From NCBI RefSeq assembly GCF_964355755.1, contig NC_092673.1, positions 18,101,648 to 18,165,647 of the forward strand: a stretch of 64,000 bases of DNA, written 5' to 3'. The position numbers and the translations under genes are program-made. The stretch is from Antedon mediterranea (taxonomy: Eukaryota > Animalia > Echinodermata). Below, piece by piece: positions 3,395-57,110 of this stretch. A model generated the notes under the pieces. That model ran no database searches. It worked only from the letters and a program-made list of their open reading frames with translations, and was not told the origin of the DNA. Position 1 is the stretch's first letter. Each line of letters begins with the position of its first letter.

Positions 3395-3865
3395 ATGGAA
3401 AGGTACGTTTTTAACAATTATTTCAAACAAAAATAACCAGCTCCAATATGTGTTGATATTATTGAAATATGCAACTATTAAAAACAAATTAAAATGTTTG
3501 AATAGTTATATTGACATACATATATACATAACATACTTTATGATCAGAATTTATAATTCAAACAAAAAGAAAACACTTTGATTTTAAGATATTCTTTTGA
3601 GAAAAATACTTCAAACTTTCTTAAAAGATTATAAAATCCAAAATTATGAAATCATAAATATTACAATTAAAGGGCTTATTCTCATTAAATATAATATTAA
3701 TAATATTTCCATCAATCATCATTCTCATTAAATACACGGGTATAAATGGATTATTTCTTACATTTTGACAGGAAACATTTGGTAGAAGCTTTGTTAAGGA
3801 ATGATTTGAAAACAATTAAACAAATCTGTAAGACGCAACCAGGTCTTCTGAAATCTATCAATGAG
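3395..3865 (+). CDS. Start exon (ATG GAA AG) plus ankyrin N-cap exon
   Basis: 3395-3402|gtacgt joined to gacag|3772-3865|gtata gives MERKHLVEALLRNDLKTIKQICKTQPGLLKSINE, a helix-helix cap ending in phase 0 before NGDTPLH. An acceptor at 3315 implies an upstream 5'UTR exon. Confidence 0.65.
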
Positions 3866-6800: not shown

Positions 6801-9800
6801 TCATTTTGTTTATTACATGGTATTGTTCACCAAATTCCTGTCTTGGTACATTTGATGATGGGATGGTATCAGGCTTCATGATATGATATGATTTTCATTG
6901 AGGCAAATGGTTTAAACTAAATTTGTTATCGTTAATATCTAACTTAACTTAAATGATATTGGTTTCATTGGGTGTTAAAAATCAGTACTAAAAGGATGTA
7001 CCAACTTTCTCTACCATTGAGTATAAATTCTAGAAGTTGCACTTAATTTACTGAAATTTCCCATTACCTAAATTTATATATAAATTCATTTAACTGCTTA
7101 TTGGTCTCATATTGTTAACATCTAAACATTTGTTTGTACAATTTTATGAAATATGTATTTTATTAATGTTCAAATTTTGTGATTGATATTGTACAGTAAG
7201 TAGATTTTAATGATTACTTACATTAAGTAATAGGCTAACAATCACTAGATCTGAACCATGGTAATATATTATATTTATATTTTGTTTTCATTTATCAATA
7301 ATGATAATTAGGATTTTATCACATTATTTAGCAGTAATTGTTGTTGTTTGTATTTACAAAAAAAACCAATTTCACATAATGTCTGTTGTCAGTATTTATA
7401 AACTTCATGATTATCATTCCTTTCCAGGGTGGTAACACTCCATTACATTCATATCTGAGGAATCGTGGATATACAACAACTATACCTACCTTAGAAATAG
7501 TGACTTGTCTCATTCAGCATGGGGCACCAGTAGCATTGCAAAATAAGGTAAATGTACAGGGATTTGCTAGTGTAATAGGCTAACATTCTATAGATATGCT
7601 GTGGTAAACCATTCTATTTTGTTCTACTCATTTATTAATAATGATAATTATGATTATTTACCACAATATTTAGCAGCAATTGTTGTTGTTTGTATTGAAA
7701 AAAAACAAACAATTTCACATAATGTCTGTTGTCAGTATTTATAAACTTCATGATGATTCATTTCCAGTATGGTGAAACTCTATTACATTCATATCTGGAG
7801 AGTGGATATACACCTACCTTAGAAATAGTGACTTGTCTCATTCAGCATGGGGCACCAGTAGCATTGCAAAAGAAGGTAATGTACAGGGATTTGCTAGTGT
7901 AATAGGCTAACATTCTATAGATATGCTGTGGTAAACCATTCTATTTTGTTCTACTCATTTATTAATAATGATAATTATGATTATTTACCACTTTATTTAG
8001 CATTAATTGTTGTTGTTTGTATTAAAAAAAAACCCAATTTCACATAATGTCTGTTGTCAGTATTTATATAACATGATTTTGATTCCTTTCCAGGATGGTG
8101 ACACTCCATTACATTCATATCTGAGGAGGCAATATAAACCTACCTTAGAAATAGTGACTTGTCTCATTGAGCATGGGTCACCAGTAGCATTGCAAAATAA
8201 GGTAATGTACAGGGATTTGCTAGTATAATAGGCTAACATTCTATAGATCTGCTGAAGTAAACCATTCAATGAGAGAAAAAAGTAAGCACATTAACAAAAA
8301 TCAAATTTTATTAAAAGAAACCTAATTAAAATAATAACTAAACAGTTATATATGATTTATGATAACTAAATCAAATAACATTTATCTTTTTTCTTAATGA
8401 ACAAAAACAATCTACTTGTAATTTGTTATATTCAGGTGAATCAGTATAATTTTGTTTAAATACTTTGTACCATAAAATAAATATATATTGCTCATATGTA
8501 GCTGTAAAGATAACAACAATTGAAAATGGTCTAATTAATTATAAATATGAAATAAAATGAGGCAACTACAGTATGTTCACAAATAATAAAATAGCAAACA
8601 AAAATGTTTGTGTTATTGTTAACAAAATTAATAGAATCTGATTTTAATAAAAAAGAATTAGTAATTGTTAATAACCTTGCTCCCTCCCTTACCTTCCAAA
8701 AAAAATACTTGCGTCAGTATATCCAGCTAATTACAGTTTGAATATGGCCTTAAAGAGATCCTTTTCCAGCATTTTTTTTTTTTGCAAACATTTTGCCACA
8801 AATGGAAGAGAAATGTAAATAATGTTTAGTTTATAGTGGTTTCCAAAATCTAAAAATGTTCGAGCAATGCAATTGGACATTTTTTTATATTCAGGTGAAT
8901 CAGTATAATTTTGTTTACATATTTTTGACCGTAAAACAAATATAAATTGGTCATATGTAGCTGTAAAGATAACAATGATTGACAATGGTCTAATTAATTG
9001 TAAAGATGAAATAAAATAGGACAACTACATTGATTAATAATAAAATAACAAATAAAAAATGCTTATGTCAAAAAAATAATAGAATCTGATTTTAATAAAA
9101 AAATAATTATTAATTAATAACCTGCTCCCTCCCTTGCCTTACAAAAAATGCTTCTGTCAGTCTATCCAGCTAATTATAAACATGACCTTAAAGAGATCCT
9201 TATCCAACCTAGAATATTTTTGTGCAAAAATTTTGCCACAAAAGGAAGAGAAATGTAAATATTTTGTTAGGGCGTGTGTCTATTGAAAAATAAAAAAAGA
9301 ATGGTTTTTTTTGGAAACCGGTTTCGGCAGTTGTTTATAAATAAATATCGCGTTGCAGCTCAATTTTTACTCCAATAAAACCGGTTCCGTCCATGTGCGT
9401 TATGAATGATGTCATTATACACACCACAATGCAGTTCGTTAGGCGGAGGCGCAATTGGATCAAGGTCATGTTTACTTTTCCAAGAATTGCATCCATTTCA
9501 TAGAAGGAGGCAGGTAATCCTGTCATTATTACCTGAAACGTTATTGTGGTCCTTGGTTAAAGTATAGGTAGGCCTACATCACACCCTCCGATATTGTCAA
9601 GTTGAACTCGTCTAGCTTTCACACGCTTTACAATATTCCTAAAAACATGTACGCAAGTCTTTCTTCCGACTCTCGGCAAGTCCCCTCACCGTTTTTTTGT
9701 GGGGACTCATTTCTGCTGGCAAGAAAAAACCGTTCTTAAAAAGAACGGTATTCAAAACCGTATCAATAGAAACAGGCCCTTAGTGGTTTCCAAATTTTAG

Positions 9801-12800
9801 CAGTAATTGTTATTGTTTGTATTGTCAAGAAACAACACAATTTCACATAATGTCTGTTGTCAGTATTTATAAACTTCATGATTATGATTCCTTTCCAGGA
9901 TGTCGACACTCCATTTTTCTCTTTTTACATGTAGCAAGTTGTTTGGATGTAAATATCAAAGTAGTCTACTATTGAACAGTTCCAGCTTTTTTTTTTTTTT
10001 TATTTCATTGGTATTTGAATAATATCCAAATATTATTTGCTGTGACATTTTGGTATTTATATTATTGCTCAAACATTTTAACAAATCTTCCTACTGTTCC
10101 AAAGTAAACTTGTATTCAATTTATCTCTCTCTTCCATCTTTCAATGTTGAAGGCGGTAGACGATAAACGGCAGCGCTCAAGTTTTGATACAGAAGTTATA
10201 GGTGGCGTTTATTTCTATTCACATCCTAATTTACAACCAATGTTAAAAAATAGTATATCTACGTGTTATCATGTGATGCTCTTTCATCCAATCGCTAGAT
10301 GGTAAATGTTTGAGCCATGATATAATACTGTATGTATGTGATGCGTAATTGAAGTGTGTTATATTGTATATCAATAATTTCTCAAAACTACTAATAACTA
10401 AACCCATTTTTTTAATAGGATGGAAATACACCTGTCTCTATTTTAGAAAGTAACAGGCTGATAAGTGACCAAAGAAAAACTGAAATTTTAAACTTCTTAG
10501 AAGGTAAGTGAAGTTTTAATTATTGAAATTTTAGGATCAACTAGTTTCATTGCAAACGATAAAGATTTGATTTCTCATCAAGTGAAGAAGAATGTCCAGA
10601 TAAAGAAAATTAACATTTATGATATATCATTCACAGGTTTATTATAGATTAAATGATTCAGTGGGATAGTAGTATACATGGAAGTTGTGATATGTTGCAA
10701 GATGTAAATTATTTTGCTATTAATACGATAAAAATAACACAAAAACGCACACTTTAAAATTCCTTTGAAATAAAAATATTAAATAAATCATTTTTCAAAT
10801 CAAATCAATCTCTTTATTCAATACATCAAAACAGTACACATAACAAAAATAAAGAGATTTTAATGATGATGATGATGATTTTAAGATGAAAGGGACCTCC
10901 AATAAACCTCAAGGGGCTTGTGATAGGAGGCCCACTTTAAACTAGTTACAATAATCGTATAGACGAATAGGCCATGGATCAACAGGGGATGCGCATTGTT
11001 AAGGAATATTTGAACTTTATTAATTGCACATAAATGTAAATGTAGATTTTTTTTTTTTTAATGTAATCTATTTTATATATAATGCTATTGTACAATTGGT
11101 ATTCGCATTCAAGGCAAACAATTTAAGATAGGAGGAGATAAATATTGAATATAAAAATCCAAATTTCTTGTTAAATCCCATTTTTTGTTTCCACAATGGA
11201 TGAATTTCCTTCACACACTTTAAAGCCAGCTTAAGAATACTATTTCTCTGTATGTAAAATTAAACATCATGCATAATGTATTTTACCTTCACTCCTACAA
11301 TTGTATTATCTTATACCAGGGGTGGATCTAGTCAACTTTATTAATTGCATATAAATGTAAATGTAGATTATATATTTTTTTTTAGATTGTCGATATGGGA
11401 CAAACACATTTTTTTTTTCTTGACGCCCGGAAATAGCATCTGAAGCGTTTTGGCTGGTCGATTCTTGTCATATAATTATCTAAATATATGTTGATATAAA
11501 GTTTGCGGTACACCATGTATATAAGTTTTGAAAAGAACTGTTGAGTTTCTTGATGTTTCGATCAATATTCTTTGATCGTCCTCAGGAGAGAGAATGCAGA
11601 AAGTCCAGGAAACTGGGAATATAAGTGGAATATGATATATAAATATAGTTTGGTTTTAAAGCCTGTTTTCTTGTCGATGCAGCGAGTTTCGTTGATTTGC
11701 GTTGAATTTTTTTTTGTTAAAGTTGAAAAAAATAATAACGATGATCGATCCGGATAGGTAATATTTACACATTTTTACATAATCGCGTTCATAGTTTCTT
11801 GGATCTCGTGAGCGTTGAAGTGACACGCGGATGTGAAGTTTTGCAGAACCAAGACCGTCCACAGCAGCCGTGGTCGAGTGAAAATTGAAAAAGTTACAGG
11901 TTTTGATGCTTCAATCCAGCCTAGGACATGTTTTCACTTATTAATCTAGGCTTTACACTAAAGACACATTAAATTAAATTGTTTTTATATTTTAATTCAC
12001 AAACTGTGATGACATAATTTGTGAACTATTTGATTGGTCAGTTGAAGTTGAATTCAGGTCAATGATTAAAGATTTTAACGTTTTTACCTCATCTTCCTGT
12101 AAAATTGTTGTATGTAAATGGGTGGCGTGTCAATGACATTTAAAAGAATATAAAACCCCCCACACCCCCCCCCCCCCCAATTTTCCCCTGTATATAACTT
12201 CCAAGCAAATTGTAAAGCAATACATAATATTTGAGCAGTTAAATTATTGAAAAATACACACAGAATAATAGAATATTATACAGGTATTGCCTGCTTAGAG
12301 GTTAAATATAAGATTTGACATCCCCGAGGGAATGTTCGAGGGAATATATATTTCCCGAAGCGCTAGTTCTCAAGAACATAATATCATTCCCAAGGGGTTG
12401 TCAAATCATATATTTTACCGATATAAAAGGCGATATCTGTTATATTACATAGCCAACAACAAGTTGAATATCTACTGCTGGGTCGGGGTTAGCTAGGCCT
12501 CCTTTGTAATAAGCCTGACTAGTTAAGTGTTGCATTCACCTTACCTTGCGAAGAATAATATAAAGATAATTACTAATTAATGATTCCTTGGCAATAAAAT
12601 ATTCACTTAGGCCTATGTCGTTTAAATTACCAGAAGAATTTTCATCAATAAGCCTACATTAATGATAATAATATTATTATCAGGTAGGCCGCAAAAATAA
12701 TAATTCGTCTTCTTCGAGGAGCCGAATCACCGGATGTTCAGCGCGCCGTTGTATTGTGATGATGGACAAATCATCGCGAGTTCAAGTCTCAGTAGATGAC

Positions 12801-15800
12801 TTTTGTTTATTTATCGCCAAACGCGAGTGTTGCCACACGAAAATTACACAGTCAATATCATCGTACTCAAGAATTTGCTGGATTTTATATGTTTAATGAC
12901 AGGGACACGATAACTACGCGAAAATTACTCAGTCAATATCATCATACTCGAGGATATATACAATTTATGATCCTCGCAGCGGTAGTCATGTGATGCAGTT
13001 TCAACCAATCACGTGAACGTATTTACATAGGCTAATTAATTTCTTCAAGCAAGTTGCGTAGCGCTGCAGGTAAAACGTTGTCTCGTGATGATGTGGGCTA
13101 ATCTTCGCGAGTTCAAGTCTCAGTAGATGACACGAAAGTTACACAGTCAATATCATGATACTTGAGAATTTTATTTATTTTATTTTTATTTTATTCAGTT
13201 GACAACCAACAGCAATGAAACCGCCACTAACAGGTTGAATCTAAACATGATAAACTATAATAATACTCAAATAAGCAACAATAACATAAACAAAGATTGG
13301 AACATTATAGAGATTGATTTTTAATTAACCTGCAAACAAAAATGTAACTTACTACGCCAATAAGGTTGATGTTTATATGCCACAACTCTACAGATCACAC
13401 ATAGACCGATGTAATGCGAATAATGTATTTTAATAACTGTCAATCACTCAATACAACAACATGGGAATCAAAGCAACAACGAACGAACAACGCCAGCCCA
13501 TGAGGGCGCACTGGCGCTATCTATCAAATCTCCTAAATCCCTTTGAAAATTGACACGGATTTTATATGTTTAATGACAGGGACACGATAATTACTCGAAA
13601 ATTACTCCGTCAATATCATCATACTCGAGGATATATACCATTTACAATCCTTGCAGTGCTACTCATATGATGCAGTTTCAACCAATCACGTTCACGTATT
13701 TACATAGGCTATGTAATATAAATAAATATTTAGCCTTGCCTTGGTGGTACTGTTACTAGTACTAACTAAAAAGGGAACCATACCTGAATGTGAAAGTTGA
13801 CAAACTTTTATAGGCTAAAACCAATCATATAACACTTAAGTCCAATTATGCGCAATTGCAGTTGAGTTTTTACAAGTAGTGTTAAATGCAATTCAACTTC
13901 AGTGGAAATAGAATGTACTGCACTTAAGTCAAATGTATTGCACTTAAGTCAAATGTATTATACTTAGTTGAATACAATTGTACTTCAATGCAATGTATTG
14001 TATCAAGGTAAATTCAAGGTATTTGTCTTAAGTTTAACTTGGAGGTAACTGATAAAATTGCTTGCCATAGCAGTGATGCTTCATCTTTGGTTCGCATATT
14101 GTTATACTGAATTCTATGTGTATAATGTTAATATATGTTGTGAATTTTCAATTATGTATACAGTTCAAATATGAGTGGGATATTCTTGTTTTTGTATACT
14201 GGTCCCCCTTCCACAATACTTGACCCCTCTCAAATTTAGCATTAGATGCGCCCCTGCTTCAATAGGATCAAATCCCCCTTGTCATTCCCCCTCTCCAATG
14301 ATCTGTGTCATGAATATTTAAAAGTGTTGCCAAGCTGACGTGACTTTTTATATAGTTCTTTTATTTTAAAAATTATATGTAATTGTTTTGTTTTTGGTAA
14401 TTTTTCAGATTTACCAAGTCCTGTTAGTGATCAATTTGAGAAACTAAAGGTTGAAAAACAGAATGGTGAGTTTAAGAATCATCATCAGAATTTACTTTTC
14501 ATTGAATTATAAAGTATTCTACTATCCTTCTAAACAGGACTGTCTGTATGTCAACCAATGCATATCTGTAGATACCTTGGCTTACTACTAGTAACAATTT
14601 CTCTCTGAAAGTTCATTTATTGGGCATCAGACATTTGCAAACACTAAGTAACTAATTGATAATATAATAATGTTGATTAAAAATCCAAAAAATCCAATAT
14701 GCAAAAAAAATAAATAAACAAAGCAGAAACTGTTGGCCTACACTGTAGCTATCCACAGAATAATAGAGTATTTCAAAAAAGAGTTTGAGGGGAAAAAGTG
14801 CTTAATCAATTCAATTTCTTTTATTTCATTCTTAAATTTCATCCATACCAACAAACGTACAAACAGAAAAAAGAAAATTTGCAAACTCTAAGCTTAAATA
14901 TATATGATATTTCTCCATCTACAATACATATGTTTGCAAACACAAGCAACAAGAATTTTACAACTATATTCAACATACATTGCATGAAACCTTAGATAGA
15001 TTTTAGCATATACTCATTAAGGGAAAGGACACTATGTTCAATAAACATCATACTGATGGCACTACTGATTCTAGAGACATTCAGTATATGGCGCAGAGCA
15101 TTATTTTAGCATACATTAAGAGATCTAAATGTCTTAGATGGTCACACCAAAGGGCAGCATAATAAAGATTAATACAATAAGATCTAAAGAGGCAACATAA
15201 CATTATATTAGTAATTTGCGATTGAGTGAACCCCACCCTGTCTAACTCCATTAGATACTGTAAATGGAATATATATGTTGTACAGGAGAGGGGACATAAC
15301 CCCACCCTGTCTAACTACATTAGATACTGTAAATGGAATATATATGTTGTACAGGAGAGGGGACATAACCCCACCCTGTCTAACTACATTAGATACTGTA
15401 AATGGAATATATATGTTGTACAGGAGAGGGGACATAACCCCACCCTGTCTAACTCCATTGGATACTGTGGATTGGAAACAGAGTTACCCCAATGTATCAC
15501 AAAACTTTGTTTCTCATACCAACATTTGAGCAATTTAACAATACAAAGATTCATACCATTGTTAATGAGCTTACTATGAAGAGTCCACATTGATTGACTT
15601 GATCAAAAGCCTTACTGGCATCTAGAGAGCAGGCAAAAACTGGGCTACCATTTCTATTGTAGTAGTCAATGACATGTTTTAATACAAAGATACAAGTATC
15701 AGTCGAGTGTTTTGCTTTAAATGCAAATTGGTAGTCGCTGGATTCAAGTGAGTTACCACAGTGACTGATCAAAATAAATTAAAAAAACTTAGATAATACA

Positions 15801-18800
15801 GAAGCTAAAGCATAGGGGTATAGTTGTTGTTATTAGTAATATCACCTGATTTACTCTTAACAATCGGCACTAATAACTAGAATAACACATGACCATGACA
15901 CAGCATATCATTAAAGCATATACTCAATAAGATATTAACCCTTTAAAGACATGGCTCGCATCCCATACGGGGTAATTTACTGTCCCAGGACATGCAATCA
16001 GGCGCAGGATTGGTTAAAGCAAATAACAGAATAGGCAAATTGATTGGTTTTTTCATTGGAAAGCAGCAAATAAGCCTATCCTACAACACTGCCAAAAGCA
16101 GTCCCACTGTCCATTTGACCAATCCTGCGCTTGTTTTAAGACATGGGGCCCGTATATGTACGGGTTGACTTTTTGGGGTCACTAAATTGCACTTTTTGAG
16201 CATTTGACCTTTGAACTAGGCAAAACAAAAATTTTTGGAAGGCTAAAACATTTCACATAATAAATCCAACAATTGCAGAAAGTTACAGCCATAAAAATGG
16301 ATTTTTGCATTTTTCCTAAACCTATTAAAAATACCTTATTTATTAGCCTCTGTCACTTGTGGTAGAAACCTTGCGTCTTCAAATGGTTAAGTCCTTTACT
16401 AGCATATTTAATGTGTGCACAATAATAATTTATTATTATACTGTATGACACACACATCAATGTAAACAATTAACCATTACAGTGTGTTACATGCATGAAT
16501 GCAGATGTAGAAAATGTGTAATGGAATAATAGGAATAAAGATTGTATGAAATTGTGTGTTAATCCTGGAAAGTTCAATTTCAATTTCAATATTATAACAT
16601 AAAAAACATAAAACTATAGTTTGTTAATAAATATAATTCCATAAAAATACAATGAAAAGTAGTTCAGTCATGTGAAGAGAGTAATGTAAGTCGAAGATAT
16701 AACATTAAAAATACAAAAAAGAAGAAAAAATACATGAACTAATAGTATATTTAAAAAAAAACAAAGCTACAATTTCTATTTAAACCACTTTATCCGATCT
16801 TAACTGGTATATTTAACGTTCATCATATCTAGAAAGTAAAAGACAAAACATTAATTTAAAAACACAGTGTAAATATCTATAATAGAATGAGTATTGTATT
16901 GTTCATATAATTATGAATAAGCTGGTGTGGTGTTGATACACAGCAGAAACTGGCTATTCTATAAATATAACCATTGAGAAGTAATTTCTTCATGATATAA
17001 ATAAACACATGTGTATGATAAATCAGGTTGAAATAAAATAATTTGCATTGTGTAATGAAGACAATTGTGACAATGGCTATTTATCAAATACCATTAAGTA
17101 ATATCTTACATTAGATTTTTATTTTTCAGATCAAATTATGGAAGTAATTGTGGGATTTGCTGGTGAAACACTTCATCTTAAGGATGAAGACATCAAGTTG
17201 GAGATACATTCTGAAGCAATTGAAGGGGAAACAGTTAAAGTATCGCTAGAAAATTTTTCTGAGGAAACAGGCATGCCTGTACTTCATTCTCATGAATCAA
17301 TAATATCACCTATTGTTAAATGTGGACCAGAAGGCACCAGCTTCAAAAAGCCCATTTCATTGTCATTTCCACACGATGCTGTAAATGAAGAGAATTGGAA
17401 ATTCACTCTACTTGTTAAAGATCGCATTCAAGATGAATGGAAACGTGATGAAAAGGACATACAGTTTACTTTAAAAAACGGTCGATGTTGTATAACATTA
17501 ATTCATTTCAGTTTTTATGCACTAATTGGTCATATAAGAAATTTCTTTGGTAAGAAAAGAATGTTGTTAGGAGTTTTTGGAAAGATGCTTGCAAATGATG
17601 AATATCAACTTCAAACAAGACTTTTTAAGCCGTCAGATAAACAGGTAATTACTATTTGTTGTTAAACTGTATTTAAATAAAGTAGTTCTTAATTTACTTA
17701 CATTAACAAATATTTTCAAAATATAGATATAATAAATAGTTGCTTTGTCATATTTGGTCAATAACATTAACCTAGAGTAGTTAATTTGGCATAATATTTA
17801 TTCTCTTATTTTTATATCTATATATAAATTTACGTAAGGGCAAAAATCGGTAAATCGCGCGTTATTTCTAGAATGTTTACTCGATGGTATATACAGTTGG
17901 TTAGAATCTCGGTACTCATTTTAACCACCTGATGTAACCCTGTTTACTAATTAAATTGAGTTAGATAATTAGTTATTGACAATTAAAACAAATTTAGGTT
18001 CAACGATTTGCCCCAAATAGGGGTGTTTTCTGATCGTGGCATACACTGTCTAATGGATGTCAATTTGAAAAATACCCGCATACGATAATACAAGGACACT
18101 TCGCATTTTCCTATCTCCTCCTACGATAATTGTTTTTAATAGCTGAAAACCGGTTGAACAGTTCGAGTACAGTATCATAATGTTAAAGACAGGCCGATTT
18201 TCCTTAAAAAATGCTATTTTGATAGATTTAATATAGGTTTATATAAATGTATTGATTTGCGATGAATGGAACATTCCAATCTCTGTTCTACAAGTGTCTA
18301 TTCCCTCAGGCGTCGTAACGGCAAATACTGTATACTCATAACAGAAATTCGATCAATTTTTTTTTCAATCTGTGCTGCAGAGGTTGGATATAGATTTTTT
18401 TAACGGATAATGAGCTAGCGTTTTCAGTCGCCGTATATTATGTACAGATCTTTATTATTGCAGTTAAACCACCCCGGGAACCACCCACATCATCACCCTT
18501 CCCTCACTGGCATGAGTAGCGTTGTTGTAAAGCCAGTAGAGGATAGGCCTACGGTGGTACGAAGGATCAACAACAACTTTGGTGGGTAGGGTAGGAACCA
18601 ACTTAAGTATGAATTGGCTCTAGAAACAATTGAAAACCATTAGGCCTACTAATTAAGTTGAGTTAGATAATTTAATATTTATTAACGATTAAATCAAATT
18701 TATGATTTGCCCCGAATAGAGGTGGTTTTCACAAATTGTTTAACATTATATAAACATATATACGTCGTAGTGATGTATCGTTACATGTACTGTACTATTT

Positions 18801-21800
18801 CAATCGATTAGGACGGTGATAGTTTCAACAAAGTAATTACATCGCCGCAATGTTTTACTGTGTTTAGTGGTATATTATTTGTAAAACATGAAAACAATTA
18901 ATATTTCGTTACTAAATGGATAAAGAATATATTTAAAAATTGTTCCTCTTTGCACCCATCCTCTTCCCCATCCCTCAACCATAATGTTACATACAAAACA
19001 CAAATTAAGTTTGTTTAAATTTGACTTAAACAATTGGTTTCATTTTGTGACAAGTTTCTCTTTCGGAAGTAATTCCCAGGGTGCTAATTTTAGTTGAGCA
19101 CATAAATCACAGTGTCTATTTATTTATTCGTTCCTGTAAACGACATGTATTATTGTCCTGCATTATTGTACATTTGAAATCACCAGTTTTTTAACGCTGA
19201 AATTATAATGTATTCGAGAACTATCTGTGGGCACGACCTAGATGGTTTGCGAGCGAAGCGAGCTTACCATCTAGTACCTTAAAATTATACAGTGTACAAT
19301 CATGTATTGAATTGATTCCTGATCATTATAAAATATGCTGTAAAGAAGTAAACATGATGATTGCATTGTACACTTCCCTCATATAATTAATAAACTAATA
19401 TACACAGTCACAAATAACAGTAAGTATATGTATTTCAGACGATAAAAGAAGAGCACAGTGAAATTGGTGAGAAGCCTTTAATAACACCAGTAGATATACT
19501 ATCTATGTATATGGACATGAACATTACTGTAGCAGTATCAGAACAGGAATGGAAAGTTCATGAGAAAAAAAAAGTAGGAATATCAATATTTTTAGTAGAT
19601 TGGCATGGTAAAGAATTATGCATTAAACATGTTTTTGCAGGAATACCACATAACTTGAGAATTCATAATGATAATTGATCAATAAATAAAATCTCTATTG
19701 CTATCCATATATTTAGCATACTGGATCACGATACTGAGTTAAGATCTTTAACTCTGTCTACACTGTCAAAAACTAGTTTGACAAAAAAAGTGTGATATAT
19801 ACAAATATGGTAGTGATATGCCCAAAAATGGTAGTGATATGACATCATCTTGTCCATATATAGGCACATTTTGTTTGATAGTGTAGACAGAGCTTTAGAA
19901 TAAAAATGCTGTCTTTTGATTAGTCTCGTTGGAGGATGCACACTTTTAATTGCAGTTAGCCATTTTTGTATTTCTCATTGAGAGAAAAACTCTTTGAATG
20001 AAAGCATTATCATAACATATAACACATAACATTATAAACAAAATTATTTAAAAAAAAATGTATTCACCAAAGCAATCAATTTAACTACAGTGCCTTTCAG
20101 CTGTAACTTTTTATCTCCTGGCTCCTTTTTTCCCTTAGACTGTCACTGCTGAATACCTATGGCGTGGAACACCATTGAAGAATTTTCTTTTAAAAAGAGG
20201 TAATTCATCAGCAAAAGTCCTAAAGGCAACAGTATCACTGTCACAAGAGTCAAATGATATTGATCCAGTGGAAGTGAATTGTAAGTATTTAAAATGCAAC
20301 AACAATTAAAGTCTAAATTTAGAATGATTGTAATAAATAAAATGTACTATTCAAATACGGTAATCAGACATTACCATCCATGACAATAACCACCCATTAT
20401 TAACTGTACCATTGTTAGAATATGGGGTGGAATCAATATAGGTGTTGGCTTGTTTTTTATCTAGCACTACAATACACTTTGGTTACATTGCTAGTTCCTA
20501 AAACACCTTAATTCTTCCGCATATCAAGCAGAGGATTTTTATTTCGAATATCGGTTGGGTGTTTTTTTTTCTAATTCTTACAGATTTTCTCATCTTAATT
20601 TTTTTATATTATTTAATTTCCAGTATAATATTACTAGTCAAGTTTTTCTATATATATATACACTATATATAAATCTGGTTTCTTTTTTTATTGAAAAAAT
20701 GATTAAATATTTTATTTGTTATAGGTAATGTTGAGACATCAGGACCAAATCCAGGTATGTTATATTAATTGTGGTAATGATTAAGTCTGTTTTCACCTTG
20801 ACCAGAGAAAAGGCATAAGCCAATACGTCTGAGGCAGATACTAGATGCAAGGGCTGCCAGCAGTTCTGATTTTAAATGCTTGATGGGATCTCAACTCCCA
20901 GACGGTCTCCCATCCAAGCTCCAACCGGGTCCAACGTTGCTCAACTTTGGTGATCAGACAAGAAAACCAGTGTTTCAACATGATAAGGCCGTATCATATC
21001 ATGTAGTGCATGAACAAACAAAAAAACAGACTACAATTTGTAGAATTTAATTCACCACCATTTCTATGGAAAATTATACAATAAAGAGTGCCCTTAAGCA
21101 CTATTTTGTCTGGCACTATTAGCCAGATTTTATCAACTTTACAGGTTATATTCCAACCAATGTGAATAGTTTTATGGTAAGCGCCGGCAGGCATCTATGC
21201 CAGCATGCCTATGAACATTTTTAGACCATGATACATTATAGCAAATATATTTACTGTAATTTTTAGCTAATTTGTTCATCCCATGCTGGTACAGGTGTTC
21301 CTCCCAGTACAGGTGTGTCTTCTGGTACAGGTGTGTCTTCAGGTACAGGTGTGTCTTCAGGTACAGGTGTTCCTTCCAGTACAGGTGTGTATTCTGGTGC
21401 AGGTGTGTCTTCTTGTACAGATAAACAAAATTTTCAAAACTTTCTTTTATTTAAAAGTCGAAGATAGCCAGGTCTCGGGTCCATTCTGTTGTCGTCACAG
21501 ATTGATATCTTCATCAGTACTTCTATGAATGGATGATTAGGTGGGAACACGAACGCTAGTTGATCATACCCAGTACCGTTTTGATCGTACGATTAATCGG
21601 GAAACCTCCTCACGATATATATAACATATTCTATATAATAACATTAAAATGTTTACTTTTCTTGTCACAGTTACATAGTAATATTTTTAGTTAATGGTTA
21701 TAGTTACTCAATAATAGTATAATTGTTTGTTGCAGAAACAAGAAATCCATTGGAAGACAAGTTCAACAAGTTAAATTATGATCTCAGTGAAGTATTTATG

Positions 21801-24800
21801 AAGTATCAGAAAAGATATTATTTTTTGAGATGTTGTCTCTCTGAGCACATTGCATTACAGGTCCTTGGCAATAGAGATTGCATAGCAAATGATTATTTCA
21901 ATGAACTCTCTGAGAAAGGATATATCAAACCAACTGATGTTGGTCTTTTGCTAAATATTGCAGAATTATCAGAAATTCAGGAAGCTAGAAATGTTGTAGC
22001 ACAGTATATGAGAGACAACAATGTTAAAAATACTGATAGACATAAGTTGTCCCCATATAGGAAAAGATTGTGCAAGGCATTGAGAGAGTTTAACCCAAAT
22101 GAAATCAATAAGATTAATGCTTTTTATCAATTGGAATTATCAACCATTTGGGATGTCGCATTTGAGTTAGAGAGGAAAAACAAATTAGTGAATAAATCAC
22201 AGAGAAAAGCGTTTGCTAACATTCTTGGACCAACTCCTAAGAAGATACTTGGTATGTACAATATTTTTTGTATTAAAAAATTGTCTATAGAGTAGGTGTT
22301 GTTAATAAAAATATTAGTTTTTATGAAAAGATTTTGCTGGTGGCCTTTATTTTACACTGACAATCTGTATTGATAAGAAAATACTAAAAGTACAGTACAT
22401 TTTCTCACATCAGATCAGACCATATGTTTTAGTATGTGGCTGCCTTGAATGAAAACTTCAAAACTATTGCAGAGAAATTCATTTTTAATGCTAATTTATT
22501 TAAAAAAAATAAACAACAGACAAAATAGCTAATAGTATTATTAAAGACACCTTCCCTACAATTTGTGACGTTTTGTAAAAATAATACATACATATTACTT
22601 TAAAAACATTAAACCAGGTCATTCCTTGTCGTAAATGTACGTTTTATGGTAAATTATGATAAAAAGTGAGAAACAATGCACTACCTAAGTAGCTCGCGGC
22701 GAGTGACCTCTCGTAGTCGGTCTTTAGGCCTAGCCTAGCTAGGCTTAGTTTTGTAGGCCTAGCTGGTAAACATCGGTAACGTACGAACATCGTACGCTAC
22801 CTATATACCTAGCCTGACGTTGTATAGTTGCTGCATTAATTGTCTTTCTATTTTTGCCAGACTCCGTTGATACAAATTGAGGAAAACCCGGTATTTTCGC
22901 TGAAAAGTTAGGAGTCTTCCATTTGTTTTGGCCTCACGATCGATCGAAAAGTGGGTGAATTACATACGGAAAAAAAAAAAATATCAATCCGCGCGCAATG
23001 CATTTTGCGATTTATAGCGGGCCGCTATAATTATTAGAATCGGCTTATTTTTCACATTTTTAATCATTTAAAGACGAAAAAAGTTATCGCAATAGGACCA
23101 TATAGTATTAACATTAAATATAGTTTGAGATCTTAAATTAGATCTAAAAAATGTAGGGAAGGTGTCTTTAATGTCACCAAGTTAATTTAATGATAGATGA
23201 TACCACACATACTGACATGAAATTATTAAAATATTTAAAAAAAATCGTATCTCTTCACAGATGAGCAAGACGATACAGCGACTACTACACAAGCCAGTGA
23301 ACAAGGTATGATCCATTGATGATACAGTCAAGTGTATAAATACTAATTTACATTTTGTCAAACCAAAATTGAACTGTTCACCGCTGTTAAAAAACCAAGC
23401 ATTATTATTATTAAACTATCTGTTTTTTTTGGCTTAACTCTTTCACTGCGTGTACCCGGTATTACTAAGTATAAACAAATGTCGTTGAACTGTGGTATAC
23501 TCGGTATTACCGGGTATGAGAAAAATTATTATTTATTTGTATTTGCCTATAATATAGCACCCTCTATAGTTTTTTGATAAACTTGAATACAGTATTTGCA
23601 ATTCATTAAAACTAATTTTTAGCACAACATGCGCCCTCTATAGTTGTTAATATCGTCTTGAAATTTCTATTTCAACTTGCGCCCTCTATCACATGTTATT
23701 ATTATTATAACCTTGTAATTAAAATTATTTTAACCATGGAAAGTTATATTATTAACTACAATGACACATAAACATTCTCCAGTTACCAATTTACCCACCC
23801 CAATAGAACAATATCATGTTCATTCTGCAAAAAGAATTCTGAATTAGTTGTTAGTTTTTCTGTAACAATGATTTGATGATTTTGACCAACAATTTATGCC
23901 TAATTTTTTATAAAATGATAAAAATAATTCAAATTTGTTTGATATTTTTATTCGTTACACATATCTTCATCAATATCCAGTGGGAAAACCATATTCCATA
24001 AAAACTATAGAAAAAATAGTTTTTATCATAAATTGATAAAAAAAACAGAAAATCCAAAATAGATGTAATGATGTCATTAATATGCAAATTAGCTTTTTTT
24101 TTACTTCTAACCATAGACCAACCTTTTAAAATAATTAAAAAATTATGTCATTTATTCTTTTTTGCACATTTCTTAAATGCATATGCACATAGCTGGGACT
24201 AATGCTTCAATGAAGTAAATGTTTGTGTATATTAAATAATTAATAATTTATTGCCATCTGCCACAACTTCCCATCTTATTAAAATAATACTAATGACAAT
24301 GGCAGTGAAATAAGAAATAATACTTGGACAAAACATGCAAAATTGTATTATTTCACAAGATTCCAATAAAAACTACTTTTTCACAGATGTGCAAGATGGT
24401 TCAGTGACCTCTGCATTAGCACAGTCTGACATCCAAGGCAGTCAACAAGGTAGGATCCATTGATTACATTTAAAAATAAAACTAAATAGACATATTATAA
24501 TAATAACTGTAGCACATTTTGAGTTATTCAAAATGTATACATTTTAGATGAAAATGTATAGTTATGTTACTCTCCAAAATGAACATAAAATGTATAGTTA
24601 TGTTACTCTCCAAAATGAACATAAAATGTATAGTTATGTTACTCACCAAAATGAACATAAAATGTATAGTTATGTTACTCTCCAAAATGAACATAAAATG
24701 TATAGTTATGTTACTCTCCAAAATGAACATAAAATGTATAGTTATGTTACTCTCCAAAATGAAAATGATGAACATAAACAGTCATTTATTTGTGTGTCAC

Positions 24801-27800
24801 TCATACAAAATAAAAAGCTTTGTCATTAATGTGTAATATATAACTGTCTTTTTTGTATTTTTGTTTGAACAGAATTAACAAAGCTATTAGCATCAGATTC
24901 ACCAGTTACTGTTAATGAGGAATTAAAAACACAAATGAAGAAAGTGATGATTGAGGAACAGGAAAGAAAACTTGAAGCAGAGAGCGGTGAGTTAAGGATC
25001 ATAAATTAATTTACTTTTTATTTCGTCACACTCAACAGTGACACAAGTCAAGTCAATTGCAAAGTTCAACAATAGAAAATGATGAACATATTTAAACATA
25101 ATTATATAAACAAAATCCAAAGCAGTCTTAAGCTGGCCTTTAATATACTGTTCAACGTATACTAACAATAACTGTCTTTTCTGGATTTTTTTATTGAACA
25201 GAAGTGACAAAGCAGTTTCCATCGGATTCATCAGATACTCTTAGTGATGAATTTCAAACACAAGTAGTGGAACAGGAAACTAAACCTGAACCAGAGAGTG
25301 GTGAGTGTCATAAAATATTAGTTGTGTTATTATATGGTTAAAATAACTTTAAATGTAGAATGGATTTTAGCTACATTTTTTTTTTATTTCAACATTTATA
25401 AAAAAAAGAATGTCTTTAAACAGAATTAGAAAAAAATACTAAATTCATACATTTAAACGATTGATAAGGTAAATAACTTATTTAACTAATCTTTAAAACA
25501 ACATGTCTTTTATTATTTAGTCAAGAATAAAAGCTGATACATTGAACAATATCTGCATAAATACTGTCATGATATTTATATATAAGTTGCTGTGACACTT
25601 ACAGGCCACCGTACTTTGATCACACAAACAAAACATATTCATTATGGTCGGCAATGTATTATCAACAAACTTAAAAATAAGAGATAGTTCTCTATCCAAT
25701 GTAAATAGAACAGTTTATATTTCATCAAAGAACATATTGTTATTGTTAATCTTATTTTGATATGCTTGCTCTATAAATTCAACAACAGATTAATTATGAT
25801 TGGTCAAAGCTCTCTGTGAAGCTGTCAACATCTTTGAAAATAGGCTTCTGGGCTCAACTTACTAAGTATTTGCTGCCCCATATATCTGGGAAAATTGGCC
25901 GTTGGTAGAGACAAAATTTGAAATTTACTTTGTTATTTATAAAGTCGCAAATTAGCATGCAACATACAAATACATTGCAAAATAATAACAAATTGATATT
26001 AATTAATAATCAAATTAGGGTGTGTTACATTGTATAGGTCTATGGTACAGGGCTCAGGTGGCAGGCCTTTACTTTACTTGCCAACTAATGTTTATTTTTT
26101 TCTTATATAAATTTTCTGGTTTTTTATTGTAATAACCTAATGCTATTTTTTGTAATATATTAATAAACCATAAATCAATAAAAAAAAATGAGGTTCTGCA
26201 CAGTAAATGAAGATGATAATGGATGAAAATGTATTAGAAATTTATGTTATTGTGGTTGATTGTGTTGAGTAATGAATAATCAAGTGCTGTTGCTTGTGAT
26301 ATTTAATTCTTAATACTAATACTCATTTCAGATCTGCAGTCGCCAGAAAATGACAGGTAAGTAGTACTGTATAATGAGTGTATCACAGTATCTATACTGT
26401 TTATTTATACTCTCCAATACCATAGAGATAGACCAACACCCTGCTAGTTAATTGTTTGCCCTGAGATGATAGTCTGGAAGGGATACATATTATTACTATC
26501 ACTTGTGTGTCTATCAGTTCAGTTGTATATTAATAACATAACCTGTTAATACAACCATAAAGTTCAACCATAGAAATAGTGTTGAAACAATTATACACAA
26601 AATCAAGAATAACAAACATCAAAAGAACTTTTAAACCCAACAACCAAGTTATAATAATAATGAAACAATCCTGGTTTTATATAGAATTACATTCTGCATA
26701 AGCTTAACGGAGGATGACGGACCTTTTGTCCTACCAATATTTTTAATTTCAGTAAGATATATGCCACACTTCCGTTTTGGCCGACAGACTCCCATATTTA
26801 TACTTGTCTCTTAGACTAACGTGCTCCTGGTTTTATATTCTCCCGTATTACAAAGATAACTGAACTTTGATGTATATGTGTTGCTTTCTGCAATAAAATA
26901 TAAAAAAAAAAAGCTAAAAAAACATACAAATTTATGATATTTAAGTCATAATTTATTGATCACCTTATTGAAGGGGATTCTTTTCACATAGTCATTATGG
27001 TACCAATTGCTCCTTGCATTTCCTGATTTTGATAATAATACTGTAAAAAAGGGAGTGGGGATGGGTTGCTAGAACCATAAAACCCTCCTGCTTACGAGTC
27101 TGTTATCCTTATTATAGGGAGTGGGGAGGGGTTGCTAGACCATAAAACCCTCCTGCTTACGAGTCTGAATCCTTATTATAGGGAGTGGGGAGGGTTTGCT
27201 AGACCATAAAACCCTCCTGCTTACAAGTCTGTTATCCTTATTATAGGGAGTGGGGAGGGGTTGCTAGAACCATAAAACCCTCCTGCTTACGAGTCTGTTA
27301 TCCTTATTATAGGGAGTGGGGAGGGGTTGCTAGAACCATAAAACCCTCCTGCTTACGAGTCTGAATCCTTATTATAGGGAGTGGGGAGGGTTTGCTAGAC
27401 CATAAAACCCTCCTTCTTACGAGTATGTTATACTTATTATAGGGAGTGGGGAGGGTTTGCTAGACCATAAAACCCTCCTTCTTACGAGTCTGTTATCCTT
27501 ATTATAGGGAGTGGGGAGGGTTTGCTAGAACCATACTTACTTACGAGTCTGTTATCCTTATTATAGGGAGTGGGGAGGGTTTGCTAGAACCATACTTACT
27601 TACGAGTCTGTTATCCTTATTATAGGGAGTGGGGAGGGTTTGCTAAAACTATAAAACCCTCCTGCTTACGAGTCTGTTATCTTTATTATAGTTTTACTAA
27701 TGTGTACATATACATTTTTATTTTTAGCCTGAAAGAAAGCATACAGACATTTGTCAAAGGTAATTTCCTTAATCATTATTGATAATCTATACATTTTTAC

Positions 27801-42800: not shown

Positions 42801-43000
42801 AAGTTGTAATTGTAGATTTTGATTTTCAAATTTAATAAACGCAAAAAAAATAATAATAAAACTGTAAAATCTTGAAAGCTCACACAAAAATTAAAGGTGT
42901 TTAAATCAATTATTTTTTTTCCCTTTTTCTTTCAGAGAACTGTGGCTTGATAATTTGTTGTATTGTAGCTGTAGTATTGGCATATAAGCATTGGAAATAG
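3395..43000 (+). CDS. Multi-exon gene: ankyrin repeats - ZU5/UPA - tandem DED - linker - HEPN (DZIP3-like)/coiled coil - linker - C-terminal TM; about 1253 aa if all 29 exons are used
   Basis: Exons with ag/gt borders and compatible phases: 3395-3402, 3772-3865, 5077-5187, 5841-5951, 7428-7547, 7768-7875, 8094-8201, 10419-10503, 14409-14465, 17130-17644, 19439-19573, 20139-20280, 20725-20754, 21736-22251, 23261-23305, 24387-24449, 24873-24986, 25202-25300, 26332-26356, 27728-27759, 31607-31651, 34464-35165, 37840-37902, 38508-38624, 38826-38921, 40616-40714, 41748-41772, 42625-42656, 42936-43000. The sum is 3762 nt with an open frame to TAG. No transcript evidence. Confidence 0.8.
4004..4912. 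repeat. About 71-bp intronic minisatellite, roughly 13 copies
   Basis: acactgatgatggaggtataacctgcatgtactgattaaccacattaggctaaaaataataatataaatac units. Confidence 0.95.
5077..5187 (+). CDS. Ankyrin repeat exon 1 (37 aa, phase 0-0)
   Basis: ttccag|NGDTPLHSYLKSGVYAPTLEIVTCLIQHGAPVALQNK|gta; GxTPLH...EIV..L...GA ankyrin consensus. Confidence 0.9.
5841..5951 (+). CDS. Ankyrin repeat exon 2 (identical to exon 1)
   Basis: Same 111 nt as 5077-5187, with ttccag/gtaatg borders. Confidence 0.88.
7428..7547 (+). CDS. Ankyrin repeat exon 3 (40 aa)
   Basis: GGNTPLHSYLRNRGYTTTIPTLEIVTCLIQHGAPVALQNK, phase 0-0. Confidence 0.9.
7768..7875 (+). CDS. Ankyrin repeat exon 4 (36 aa)
   Basis: YGETLLHSYLESGYTPTLEIVTCLIQHGAPVALQKK, phase 0-0; not in the ORF track. 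Confidence 0.88.
8094..8201 (+). CDS. Ankyrin repeat exon 5 (36 aa)
   Basis: DGDTPLHSYLRRQYKPTLEIVTCLIEHGSPVALQNK, phase 0-0. Confidence 0.9.
9270..9779. mobile_element. PIF/Harbinger-like MITE
   Basis: TIRs gggcgtgtgtctattga / tcaatagaaacaggccc; TTA TSD at 9267-9269 and 9780-9782. Confidence 0.75.
9899..9915 (+). pseudogene. Truncated ankyrin exon remnant
   Basis: The conserved upstream intron and ttccag acceptor are followed by GAT GTC GAC ACT CCA (DVDTP); homology then stops and a TAG follows. Confidence 0.75.
10419..10503 (+). CDS. Ankyrin C-cap exon (phase 0-1)
   Basis: tttaatag|DGNTPVSILESNRLISDQRKTEILNFLE+G|gtaagt. Confidence 0.8.
14409..14465 (+). CDS. Linker exon (phase 1-1)
   Basis: tttttcag|(D)LPSPVSDQFEKLKVEKQN|gtgagt. 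Confidence 0.7.
14960..16420 (-). mobile_element. Degenerate non-LTR retrotransposon RT fragment with an internal 69-bp triplication
   Basis: YQFAFKAKHSTDTC...LDASKAFDQVN and NGVRQGGVMSPLLYNIY RT motifs; stops and frameshifts; 69-bp unit repeated at about 15229-15470. Confidence 0.85.
15939..16386. mobile_element. piggyBac-type MITE inserted in the LINE fragment
   Basis: TTAA|ccctttaaagac ... gtcttcaaatgg|TTAA; removing it rejoins the RT frame (HIKYASKGL/NILLSICFN on the minus strand). Confidence 0.75.
17130..17644 (+). CDS. ZU5 domain exon with HFS motif
   Basis: VGFAGETLHL...ISPIVKCGPEGTSFKKPISLSFPH...LIHFSFYALIG matches the ZU5 consensus of UNC5/PIDD/UNC5CL. Confidence 0.88.
17817..19274 (+). 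mobile_element. Non-autonomous Helitron, copy 1
   Basis: A|TCTATATATAAATTTACG ... hairpin ... CATCTAG|T; second copy at 28477. Confidence 0.85.
19439..20280 (+). CDS. Two UPA-like domain exons (19439-19573, 20139-20280)
   Basis: TIKEEHSEIGEKPLITPVDILSMYMDMNITVAVSEQEWKVHEKKK / TVTAEYLWRGTPLKNFLLKRGNSSAKVLKATVSLSQ...; beta-rich, directly after ZU5, phases fit. Confidence 0.7.
20896..20994 (-). pseudogene. 5S rRNA-derived sequence (pseudogene or SINE3 head)
   Basis: Reverse complement tacggccttatcatgttgaaacactggttttcttgtctgatcaccaaagttgagcaacg...cttggatgggagaccgtctggga resembles metazoan 5S including box A and box C; the 3' end diverges. Confidence 0.8.
21736..22251 (+). CDS. Tandem death-effector-domain (DED-DED)-like exon (phase 1-1)
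   Basis: FNKLNYDLSE...DYFNELSEKGYIKPTDVGLLLNI...VVAQY followed by LSPYRKRLCKALREF...IWDVAFELERKNKL, resembling caspase-8/cFLIP prodomain repeats. Confidence 0.7.
22545..23167. mobile_element. Kolobok-like MITE
   Basis: TTAA|agacaccttccctaca ... tgtagggaaggtgtct|TTAA; empty site with a single TTAA in the paralogous intron at 31511. Confidence 0.85.
23261..27759 (+). CDS. Linker exon block copy 1 (six small S/T/E/Q-rich exons)
   Basis: 23261-23305, 24387-24449, 24873-24986, 25202-25300, 26332-26356, 27728-27759; canonical borders, frame kept, conserved in copy 2. Confidence 0.75.
24550..24777. repeat. 36-bp minisatellite, about 6 copies
   Basis: aaaatgtatagttatgttactctccaaaatgaacat units. 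Confidence 0.92.
27051..27690. repeat. About 65-bp minisatellite, roughly 10 copies
   Basis: gggagtggggaggg(g/t)ttgctagaaccataaaaccctcctgcttacgagtctgttatccttattata units. Confidence 0.92.
27771..28342. repeat. About 88-bp tandem repeat, 6-7 copies
   Basis: aatcattattgataatctatacattgttacaacatgctgctattagctgtgatatcttcattcctcttaccagtagtagtactatcag units. Confidence 0.92.
28380..30330 (+). mobile_element. CR1/L2-like LINE endonuclease fragment, interrupted by a Helitron
   Basis: IDPDQNF, HFNARSL, IYRAP, ILGDFNIDIL, SLIDNI and SGLLYSDIS are AP-endonuclease motifs. Confidence 0.75.
28477..29616 (+). mobile_element. Non-autonomous Helitron, copy 2, inside a LINE fragment
   Basis: Same TC/CTAG termini and subterminal hairpin; internal deletion relative to copy 1. 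Confidence 0.85.
30690..31483 (-). mobile_element. Helentron-associated (HINE/DINE-1-like) element with GACA/GACC microsatellites
   Basis: agtcgcg subterminal repeats, terminal palindrome gagtcgcttccacgcgact and tetranucleotide microsatellites; absent from the paralogous site near 22510. Confidence 0.65.
31607..42656 (+). CDS. Linker exon block copy 2 (seven small exons flanking the HEPN exon)
   Basis: 31607-31651, 37840-37902, 38508-38624, 38826-38921, 40616-40714, 41748-41772, 42625-42656; paralogous to copy 1. Confidence 0.75.
33208..33882 (+). mobile_element. HINE/DINE-1-like element
   Basis: 5' ttacctccgcc and 3' ggcggaggta subterminal inverted repeat, followed by a hairpin and ctagtt. 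Confidence 0.75.
34464..35165 (+). CDS. DZIP3/hRUL138-like HEPN domain plus coiled-coil exon (702 nt, phase 1-1)
   Basis: NYFRICCLL..EGTKAMR.FF...Q..LLFP......EDFDMTLL.ILI.NLC...DLRIFRNDQAH...ISQHDF...W..LS.IL; RxxxxH at 34811-34828; C-terminal heptad-like K/E/L run. Confidence 0.85.
35650..36462 (-). mobile_element. RTE-clade LINE endonuclease fragment
   Basis: GDFNAKVG, IGNFGSGHRNDRGE, NTFFKK...RWTWRSPDG..KNEIDLIL, SDHR. Confidence 0.85.
39140..40525 (+). mobile_element. 5'-truncated CR1/L2-like LINE (RT plus 3'UTR)
   Basis: ORF 39159-40244 with DFTKAFDRVDH, GVPQGTKLGP and a mutated YVND catalytic motif; AT-rich 3'UTR ending in aataaa. Confidence 0.9.
42936..43000 (+). CDS. Terminal exon encoding a tail-anchor transmembrane helix
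   Basis: Long pyrimidine tract, then ttcag|(E)NCGLIICCIVAVVLAYKHWK*. Confidence 0.8.
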
Positions 43001-43320
43001 TATTGGTTACTGTTGGTTCATTTATTTGGGCTCAATGTTTTGAGAAAAATTTATCAAGAGGATATATTGTGATGCATCATTATTGAAAAAATGTCTATTT
43101 TTTCAATGATGGAATTCTATCTTAGTACCACATATAGTATAGCCTGTTTCACTGCACACCAGGCCATATGAATACCTGAAGAAATCTGAGTTATGTTGTA
43201 AACCACTTTGATAGATTATTACATACCACATCTGAGTTATGTTGTAAACCACTTTGATACAGATAGATTATTACATACCACAATAAACCATACTTTTTAA
43301 TATGCCATCTTTAAAAATTA

Positions 43321-55355: not shown

Positions 55356-55800
55356 ATGGAATCCACACTGGCAAACTTCCCGAACTTCAAAATACGAAAT
55401 TCCGGCGACGATGCGCAAGAATTCGAAAAATACGCAGGCCGACTCGAAAATTTTTCCACGGCTATGAACATCCGGGACGACAAGAGGAAGAGAGCACTGT
55501 TGCTTCACTATGCAGGTGAGAAGGTATACGATATTTTTGGAACTTTGCAGGCAATATTTATGATGAGGCCAAACTAGCAATGAAAAACTACTTTGAGCCC
55601 AAGAAGAATATTCCATTCGCCATCTACACCTTCCGTCAGTTAAGCCAAAATGCCAGCGAGTCGATTGACGACTACGTCACACGCTTACGTCATGCTGCTA
55701 GGACATGCTCGTTTGCGGACGTTGATGGTGAAATAAAAATGCAAATAATATCTCACTGTTGCTCGCCAAAGCTTAGACGTGCGGCTCAACGAGATCCTAC
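55356..55800 (+). pseudogene. gag: Gypsy gag, frameshifted and interrupted
   Basis: KRALLLHYAGEKVYDIF...YTFRQLSQNASESIDDYVTRLR. Confidence 0.85.
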
Positions 55801-57090: not shown

Positions 57091-57110
57091 CCAAAAGGGC
57101 AGTTAATGCT

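Follow-up and report, generated by a model that had tools for sequence, protein, structure and literature searches.

Does the triplet H-F-S in a crinoid ZU5 exon mark a bond at which the host protein cuts itself, and what would such a cut set free? The window (the whole stretch of DNA that was analyzed, 64,000 nucleotides from Antedon mediterranea) is AT-rich, intron-rich animal DNA. Positions 17504-17512 (+ strand) read CAT TTC AGT, which confirms by codons the H-F-S that a sequence-only reading had pointed out within LIHFSFYALIG; the host is the ZU5 exon 17130-17644 of a spliced gene on the + strand. By composition, HFS is expected by chance 0.03 times in the ZU5 exon and 0.08 times in the whole gene model. 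HF[STC] triplets are frequent across the six frames of the window, so the triplet alone is little proof and the case rests on position and conservation. A chance motif was rejected on the basis of register and conservation.

The gene was modeled as 29 exons from 3395 to 43000 (+ strand), with all introns GT..AG and an open frame of 1253 aa in which H-F-S occupies residues 393-395. The frame is still open, at 1282 aa, when a 72-base exon (21295-21366) is added and an acceptor 15 bases earlier (38811) is used. Junctions upstream of the DED linker were placed using splice signals and homology to annotated paralogs. The features are as follows.

3395..3865, + strand: predicted start codon, at the first Met downstream of an in-frame stop, with the initial coding exons 3395-3402 and 3772-3865; from splice signals only.
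5077-5187, 5841-5951, 7428-7547, 7768-7875 and 8094-8201, + strand: five one-repeat ankyrin exons; from Pfam Ank and the open frame.
10419-10503, + strand: capping exon after the ankyrin repeats; from the open frame.
14409..14465, + strand: linker exon ahead of ZU5; from the gene model and similar sequence ahead of ZU5 in paralog P0005.
17130..17644, + strand: ZU5 exon with the first UPA strands; from Pfam ZU5, the AF2 model and the match to UNC5B 3g5b.
17504..17512, + strand: H-F-S triplet, model residues 393-395; from codons, conservation and structural register.
Between bases 17509 and 17510, + strand: predicted scissile bond F394/S395.
19439..20280, + strand: remaining UPA, exons 19439-19573 and 20139-20280; from identity to paralog P0002.
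20725..21366, + strand: linker exons 20725-20754 and 21295-21366; from the gene model, the second from the X5 contig joint 21366>21736 with the frame checked.
21736..22251, + strand: exon for a tandem DED-like helical pair; from homology to the DED region of P0008.
23261-23305, 24387-24449, 24873-24986, 25202-25300, 26332-26356 and 27728-27759, + strand: acidic linker block, first copy; from GT..AG joints in X5 contigs.
31607-31651, 37840-37902, 38508-38624, 38811 or 38826-38921, 40616-40714, 41748-41772 and 42625-42656, + strand: linker block, second copy; from blastn between the blocks, exon identities and joints.
34464..35165, + strand: DZIP3/hRUL138-like HEPN exon, phase 1-1, with a charged helical tail; from Pfam, the motif and an X5 donor joint.
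42936..43000, + strand: last exon, with a 15-residue hydrophobic segment, KHWK and a stop, a predicted tail anchor; from hydropathy, the spliced joint and a paralog match.

The order in the gene model is ankyrins, ZU5, UPA, a DED-like pair, acidic linkers, HEPN_DZIP3, more linkers and a hydrophobic C-terminal tail. This supports the ankyrin-ZU5-UPA-DED-HEPN-membrane tail order proposed earlier, the evidence being Pfam, the gene model, contig joints and paralog comparison. Pfam Ank E values were 5e-05 and 1e-04 for the two of the five ankyrin exons that were scanned. The repeats lie one per exon in genomic tandem units (5077-9960; periods of 217 and 326 bp), the first two ankyrin exons being identical and a degenerate copy with stops starting at 9899. 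Elsewhere, an LTR-retrotransposon-like element (55344-60240, + strand) has gag, reverse transcriptase, RNase H and integrase matches across several frames and has 89-bp tandem arrays on either side (52586-55148 and 62395-63024). Introns contain non-LTR retrotransposon fragments at 39105-40244 (+) and 35393-36528 (−), with RVT_1 and endonuclease matches; a third, at 29543-30411 (+), is endonuclease-like by eye and gave no Pfam match.

The nearest database relatives are proteins of Antedon mediterranea itself, 59-76% identical over the ZU5 exon in seven of eight matches. The set P0001-P0003, P0005, P0006, P0008, P0009 and P0011 (n=8) suggests a gene cluster; P0004 has an added Roc-COR module. 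For these relatives, automatically assigned labels such as “netrin receptor UNC5B-like” mislead.

Exon 17130-17644 codes for a ZU5 domain (PF00791 in Pfam, E 2.9e-16). An AlphaFold (AF2) model of it, made with 84 sequences, had a pLDDT of 93.6 and block means of 96-97 across the site. DSSP placed F124-S125 (exon model numbering) as a two-residue turn between strands 116-123 and 126-133. The motif had been described as lying at the end of ZU5; it is near that end, but the predicted cut precedes the last ZU5 strand. The best fold matches (Z 13.9-15.7) were the ZU5 domains of UNC5B and ankyrin, both non-cleaving, with values for UNC5B 3g5b of Z 13.9, rmsd 2.7 and 167 residues aligned. Model residues 264-530 (ZU5-UPA) are 73% identical to P0002. 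That UPA follows ZU5 was seen with a model of this paralog (the window UPA spans three exons), which matched UNC5B 541-828 with Z 25.7, rmsd 2.4 and 275 aligned. The same P0002 ZU5-UPA model matched CARD8 7jn7_B (Z 16.9, rmsd 3.9, 244 aligned) and rat NLRP1 7crw_A (Z 16.3, rmsd 3.9, 242 aligned).

Register was assessed from the ends of structural alignments. In a search of 48,161 chains, residue 124 (the Phe of HFS) was the range end in eight of the top 19 rows: NLRP1 6x6c_E, rat NLRP1 7crv_C, five GAIN chains, whose matched ends we take to be P1 residues, and the ZO-1 construct 2kxr. The last of these does not cleave, and its match reaches no further than 124 because that is where its chain terminates. 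The NLRP1 and GAIN rows (Z 6.4-8.6) give range ends only. For NLRP1 6x6c_E, residue 1212 stands opposite residue 124 (Z 7.5, rmsd 3.2, 109 aligned), so that the AlphaFold model places our Phe against F1212, the last residue of the cleaved NLRP1 N-fragment, and the proposed register with the NLRP1 F/S site is supported. The NLRP1 nucleophile is S1213 (PMC3210808, in excerpt). F216 of paralog P0002 lies opposite the ends of chains 4dlq_A and 8vti_A. In the sequence alignment, QLG of UNC5B (3g5b) is the counterpart of HFS; an excerpt of PMC3210808 equates the CARD8 Phe with UNC5b Leu-677. Our HFS also falls in the same columns as the HFS of four vertebrate UNC5C-like proteins (bichir, seal, paddlefish and sawshark), which bears out the suggested correspondence to the UNC5CL HF/S site. 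Named PIDD1 was absent among the 30 homologs looked up, and the PDB search returned the PIDD death domain only; a homolog search limited to 1492-4260 aa gave none, PIDD1 (910 aa) being outside that range. The PIDD1 sites are F445/S446 and F587/S588.

Conservation was examined across ZU5 domains found by a full-library search. The best 150 of 188 matches (E ≤0.001), together with earlier ones, comprise 153 proteins and 169 ZU5 domains; 125 domains span the site, and one at a fragment edge was left out to give 124. Within this set (best 150 of 188 matches plus the earlier ones), 102 of the 124 domains carry H-F, and the next residue is Thr in 66, Ser in 24, Cys in 12 and nothing else, which fits the cleavage reading. 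N-to-O/S autoproteolysis uses Ser, Thr and Cys as its nucleophiles (PMC3210808 and PMC9162469, in excerpt). On a tree calculated with the motif masked, the +1 column requires at least 24 parsimony changes among S/T/C and at least 10 Cys gains or losses, while neighboring columns undergo 37-53 changes among 12-16 states. Co-occurrence of the His and the nucleophile (104/2/9/9 over the 124 domains) gave a Fisher p of 1.6e-7 in a test that ignores relatedness. At S59, another small-residue column of the domain, Ala or Gly is present in 12% of domains. The query carries HFS and hits are biased accordingly; this bias fails to explain Cys without Ala, because BLOSUM62 favors Ala and Asn (each +1 versus Ser) over Cys (−1). 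As far as aligned sequences can speak, the pattern argues that selection maintains a nucleophile (Ser/Thr/Cys) at the +1 position. It has perhaps been described already in the work of Liao (2014) on the ZU5/GAIN/Nup98 family.

Domains of the UNC5-receptor group (seven that are named as such or have receptor architecture, and one partial rotifer protein; group support 0.50) lack HF[STC] in eight of eight cases. According to an excerpt of a review (PMC10084454), canonical Unc5 does not self-cleave and Unc5CL does. Ser at +1 is insufficient by itself, being found in UNC5 receptors as HLS, RFS and SLS and in the second ZU5 of ankyrin-2 as N-V-S. In the tree, the window ZU5 clusters with crinoid paralogs, apart from the vertebrate UNC5CL clade. 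Its 14-domain crinoid clade has HFS in four members, HFT in two, HFC in five, YFS in two and SFT in one, and Ser, Thr and Cys versions are all present among close Antedon paralogs. Two further arrangements were also seen among the homologs: P0082 (1645 aa) combines Rel homology, kinase, ZU5 (HFT) and death domains, and P0083 (678 aa) has four tandem ZU5-like domains with motifs HFT, HLT, HFT and HFS.

Self-cleavage between Phe394 and Ser395 is, in our judgment, highly probable. A literature search found no cleavage experiment on this protein or on an echinoderm relative. In the proposed mechanism, Ser395 would attack the preceding peptide bond in an N-to-O acyl shift, with His393 as helper and Phe394 as a buried anchor, constitutively after folding. 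The expected products are a 44 kDa N-fragment and a 101 (or 55) kDa C-fragment. The N-fragment would remain bound, because the ZU5 sandwich includes the first strand of the C-fragment. Both halves of CARD8 co-purify (PMC3210808, in excerpt), and for NLRP1 the post-cut strand is given as the explanation for the tight halves, with release via N-fragment degradation (10.1101/2020.08.13.250241, in excerpt). The sequence-only reading had cleavage itself splitting off a soluble ankyrin-ZU5 sensor. That claim lacks support in this form, given the post-cut strand in the ZU5 sandwich and the bound halves of cleaved CARD8 and NLRP1, and release by cleavage alone was rejected for the same reasons. With the halves expected to stay clamped, a further trigger would be required to release them, as it is in NLRP1.

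By analogy with NLRP1/CARD8, damage to or degradation of the N-fragment would free the UPA. The freed UPA may then oligomerize on a membrane via the C-terminal tail, where the DED-like pair would cluster and recruit DED adaptors or caspases; in the long isoform, HEPN domains would be brought together as an RNase. Release and effector steps are the weak part of this explanation and are borrowed from the NLRP1/CARD8 analogy. The full reading, with a cut at HFS, halves that stay clamped, a trigger that removes the ankyrin-ZU5 half and a UPA side that then activates, is one toward which we lean on balance.

The effector side was examined exon by exon. Exon 21736-22251 gave no direct Pfam DED match but is 41% identical to the DED region of P0008. 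Of eight aligned members, six match DED PF01335 (best 1e-08), and the profile reaches FADD and PEA-15 at E 0.2-0.5 only. When the DED and HEPN exons were searched singly against the PDB, chance matches alone were returned. The HEPN exon matches Pfam PF18738 (E 5.4e-13; 49.4 bits versus a cut-off of 27). HEPN RNases act as dimers. The exon retains an intact motif, RNDQAH (Rx4H), with a polar residue after the Arg, in agreement with the HEPN catalytic motif Rx4-6H with a polar residue after Arg (PMC3710099, in excerpt), and an RNA-cutting function is predicted from these retained residues. Neither the HEPN nor the ankyrin exons matched any of 177 proteins, and none of 50 homologs scanned had ankyrin or HEPN_DZIP3. 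The hydrophobic tail has a Kyte-Doolittle 15-residue mean of 2.87, the maximum of the model, and matches the pre-TM/TM region of paralog P0007 at 53% over 43 aa (blastp); phmmer with the 20-residue tail gave 0 of 177 proteins. A hydrophobic segment after ZU5-UPA, as in the window gene, is present in three of 13 crinoid relatives checked (P0006, P0007 and P0011). A short hydrophobic tail with a basic end presumably suits mitochondrial or peroxisomal membranes.

The linker exons lie in a tandem duplication (22289-27779 and 30484-42675) whose pieces are 80-98% identical by blastn. The HEPN exon and LINE fragments are confined to the second copy. This confinement and the 1-1 phase of the exon suggest that HEPN was gained by recent exon shuffling.

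Splicing was assessed with X5 contigs, which come from the same organism, different sample, and are probably RNA given their GT..AG joints. Across 23200-43150 they have 14 joints, ten of them GT..AG, and eight agree with model junctions directly or via duplicated exons; 24449>38508 was counted as 37902>38508 solely through duplicated-exon mapping. Joints of the second block are 35165>37840 (the HEPN donor), 38624>38811, with an acceptor 15 bases upstream of that in the model, and 38921>40616. The joint into the last exon (42936) is also present. One contig adds the 72-base exon 21295-21366 before the DED exon and, among the joints listed, stops at donor 22251, where 41 additional letters follow. 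An X5 contig runs unspliced from 20820 into exon 21295-21366 and is then spliced to the DED exon; this is a retained intron or an internal start and could give a DED-first product.

Cleavage may be right and the architecture wrong, if the main product skips the second block. Exons 27728-27759 and 42625-42656 are identical, which makes possible an 884-aa ankyrin-ZU5-UPA-DED-tail isoform (27759>42936, in frame), with the HEPN exon belonging to an alternative or partial transcript. The observed joint to the last exon fits either of the two identical exons, and both the acceptor junction into the HEPN exon and 27759>31607 are absent from the 14 X5 joints (23200-43150); the failure of the HEPN exon to find a counterpart among the 177 proteins and 50 homologs points the same way. 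Against this, a joint links the HEPN exon to the second block, which has two further joints of its own. Moreover, the HEPN exon is phase 1-1 with its first Met inside the domain, and so requires an upstream phase-1 exon, which this gene supplies. Note also that a 3-base deletion in X5 at 34473, beside the acceptor, may mask a joint at 97% likeness. We consider the HEPN-less form unlikely as the main product.

A second alternative accepts self-cleavage and sees in it PIDD1-like processing or maturation, in which each fragment has its own partners or turnover and removal of the ankyrin half by a trigger plays no part. The HFS motif is shared with PIDD1 and UNC5CL and differs from the SFS of NLRP1 and CARD8; PIDD1 processing is described as constitutive and as setting the levels of the fragments (PMC7883297 and 10.1101/2025.06.23.660994, in excerpt); and HF[STC] is kept in paralogs whose N-termini are unrelated or nearly missing. 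However, the single ZU5 allows one cut only, and a C-fragment of UPA plus death fold, held to its partner by the post-cut strand, has the layout of NLRP1/CARD8. We regard processing of this kind as doubtful next to cleavage followed by triggered release. Absent or poor cleavage, with an UNC5B-like conformational switch and an HFS inherited unused in this copy, is improbable: although the top structural matches are non-cleaving, the family evolves fast, some crinoid copies have no His (SFT, YFS) and the ZU5 exon has a 4-5-residue deletion relative to the closest paralogs about 20 residues ahead of the site, no motif residue or conserved core position is altered, the non-cleaving receptors lack the motif without exception and the model is confident across the site.

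In its mode of action the window protein would resemble the PIDD1/UNC5CL/NLRP1 class, and it is the ortholog of none; orthology to PIDD1, UNC5CL, UNC5A-D and ankyrin was rejected from architecture and tree. UNC5CL, for which autoproteolysis is described in reviews (PMC10084454 and PMC7883297, in excerpt), shares a single ZU5, HFS in the same columns, a following UPA and death fold, and a membrane segment. Its hydrophobic segment is N-terminal (residues 13-15 onward; P0086, P0126) and that of the window protein C-terminal, so that the effector half of UNC5CL is unanchored. UNC5CL also has a DD, whereas the window protein has the DED-like pair plus ankyrins and HEPN; it lacks the N-terminal anchor of UNC5CL and belongs to a separate clade. 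PIDD1 resembles it in the HF/S cut after ZU5, the N-terminal repeats and the C-terminal UPA and death fold (PMC3210808 and PMC9162469, in excerpt), and differs in its LRRs, two ZU5 domains with two cuts, DD, and lack of a membrane tail or HEPN. In place of LRR-ZU5-ZU5-UPA-DD, the window encodes ankyrins, one ZU5 (tblastn) and the DED-like pair.

The FIIND of NLRP1/CARD8 is similar in ZU5-UPA fold, scissile position and post-cut strand pairing with ZU5, but has SF/S, a CARD effector, no membrane tail and 7-9% identity; here the motif is HFS and the downstream exon is DED-like instead of CARD. The upstream catalytic His of the FIIND proteins is H942 in rat NLRP1, H1186 in human NLRP1 and H270 in CARD8 (10.1101/2020.08.13.250241, in excerpt). 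UNC5A-D and ankyrins 1-3, the best structural matches, are without HF[STC] (QLG, SLS, NVS and others), and the window protein has no Ig/TSP ectodomain and carries only five ankyrin repeats and one ZU5. Marine-invertebrate expansions of ZU5/FIIND, DED and HEPN immune proteins mix the same modules (death-fold, ankyrin, HEPN and ZU5), and ZU5/FIIND autoproteolysis has already been predicted there as effector deployment (PMC8195603, in excerpt). DZIP3-type HEPN fused to ankyrin and death domains is likewise described (PMC3710099, in excerpt). In these excerpts the examples are TRADD-N proteins or general HEPN fusions, and the order in the window is absent from them. A search of the literature found no description of the ankyrin-ZU5-UPA-DED-DED-HEPN-tail order or of crinoid ZU5 proteins. 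The chemistry is known; the variation lies in the arrangement, in which the effector half carries the anchor, the reverse of UNC5CL, and HEPN occupies a single copy of the duplicated block.

We would go further only tentatively, to a crinoid-expanded, NLRP1-like tripwire family of self-cleaving receptors, whose tail-anchored platform of UPA and DED is capped by an ankyrin-ZU5 bait. This copy would have gained the HEPN RNase exon, and on an organelle membrane the destruction of the bait would assemble a death-signaling cluster together with an RNase.

Cleavage chemistry of this kind is well established, and the motif alone would be ordinary. That Ser, Thr and Cys replace one another, and that none of the 102 H-F carriers (best 150 of 188 matches plus earlier ones) has anything else, argues that many invertebrate ZU5 proteins labeled “UNC5C-like” or “netrin receptor-like” self-cleave, and the chemistry can readily be tested on the naturally occurring Thr and Cys forms. 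A second point of value is the effector-side membrane anchor combined with a HEPN domain whose catalytic residues are intact. If degradation of the N-fragment releases the halves, echinoderms too would have sensing in the manner of NLRP1, with an RNase as its output. If the tripwire reading is true, functional-degradation sensing in an invertebrate would lead straight to RNA cleavage, and the paralogs would include versions with Ser, Thr and Cys.
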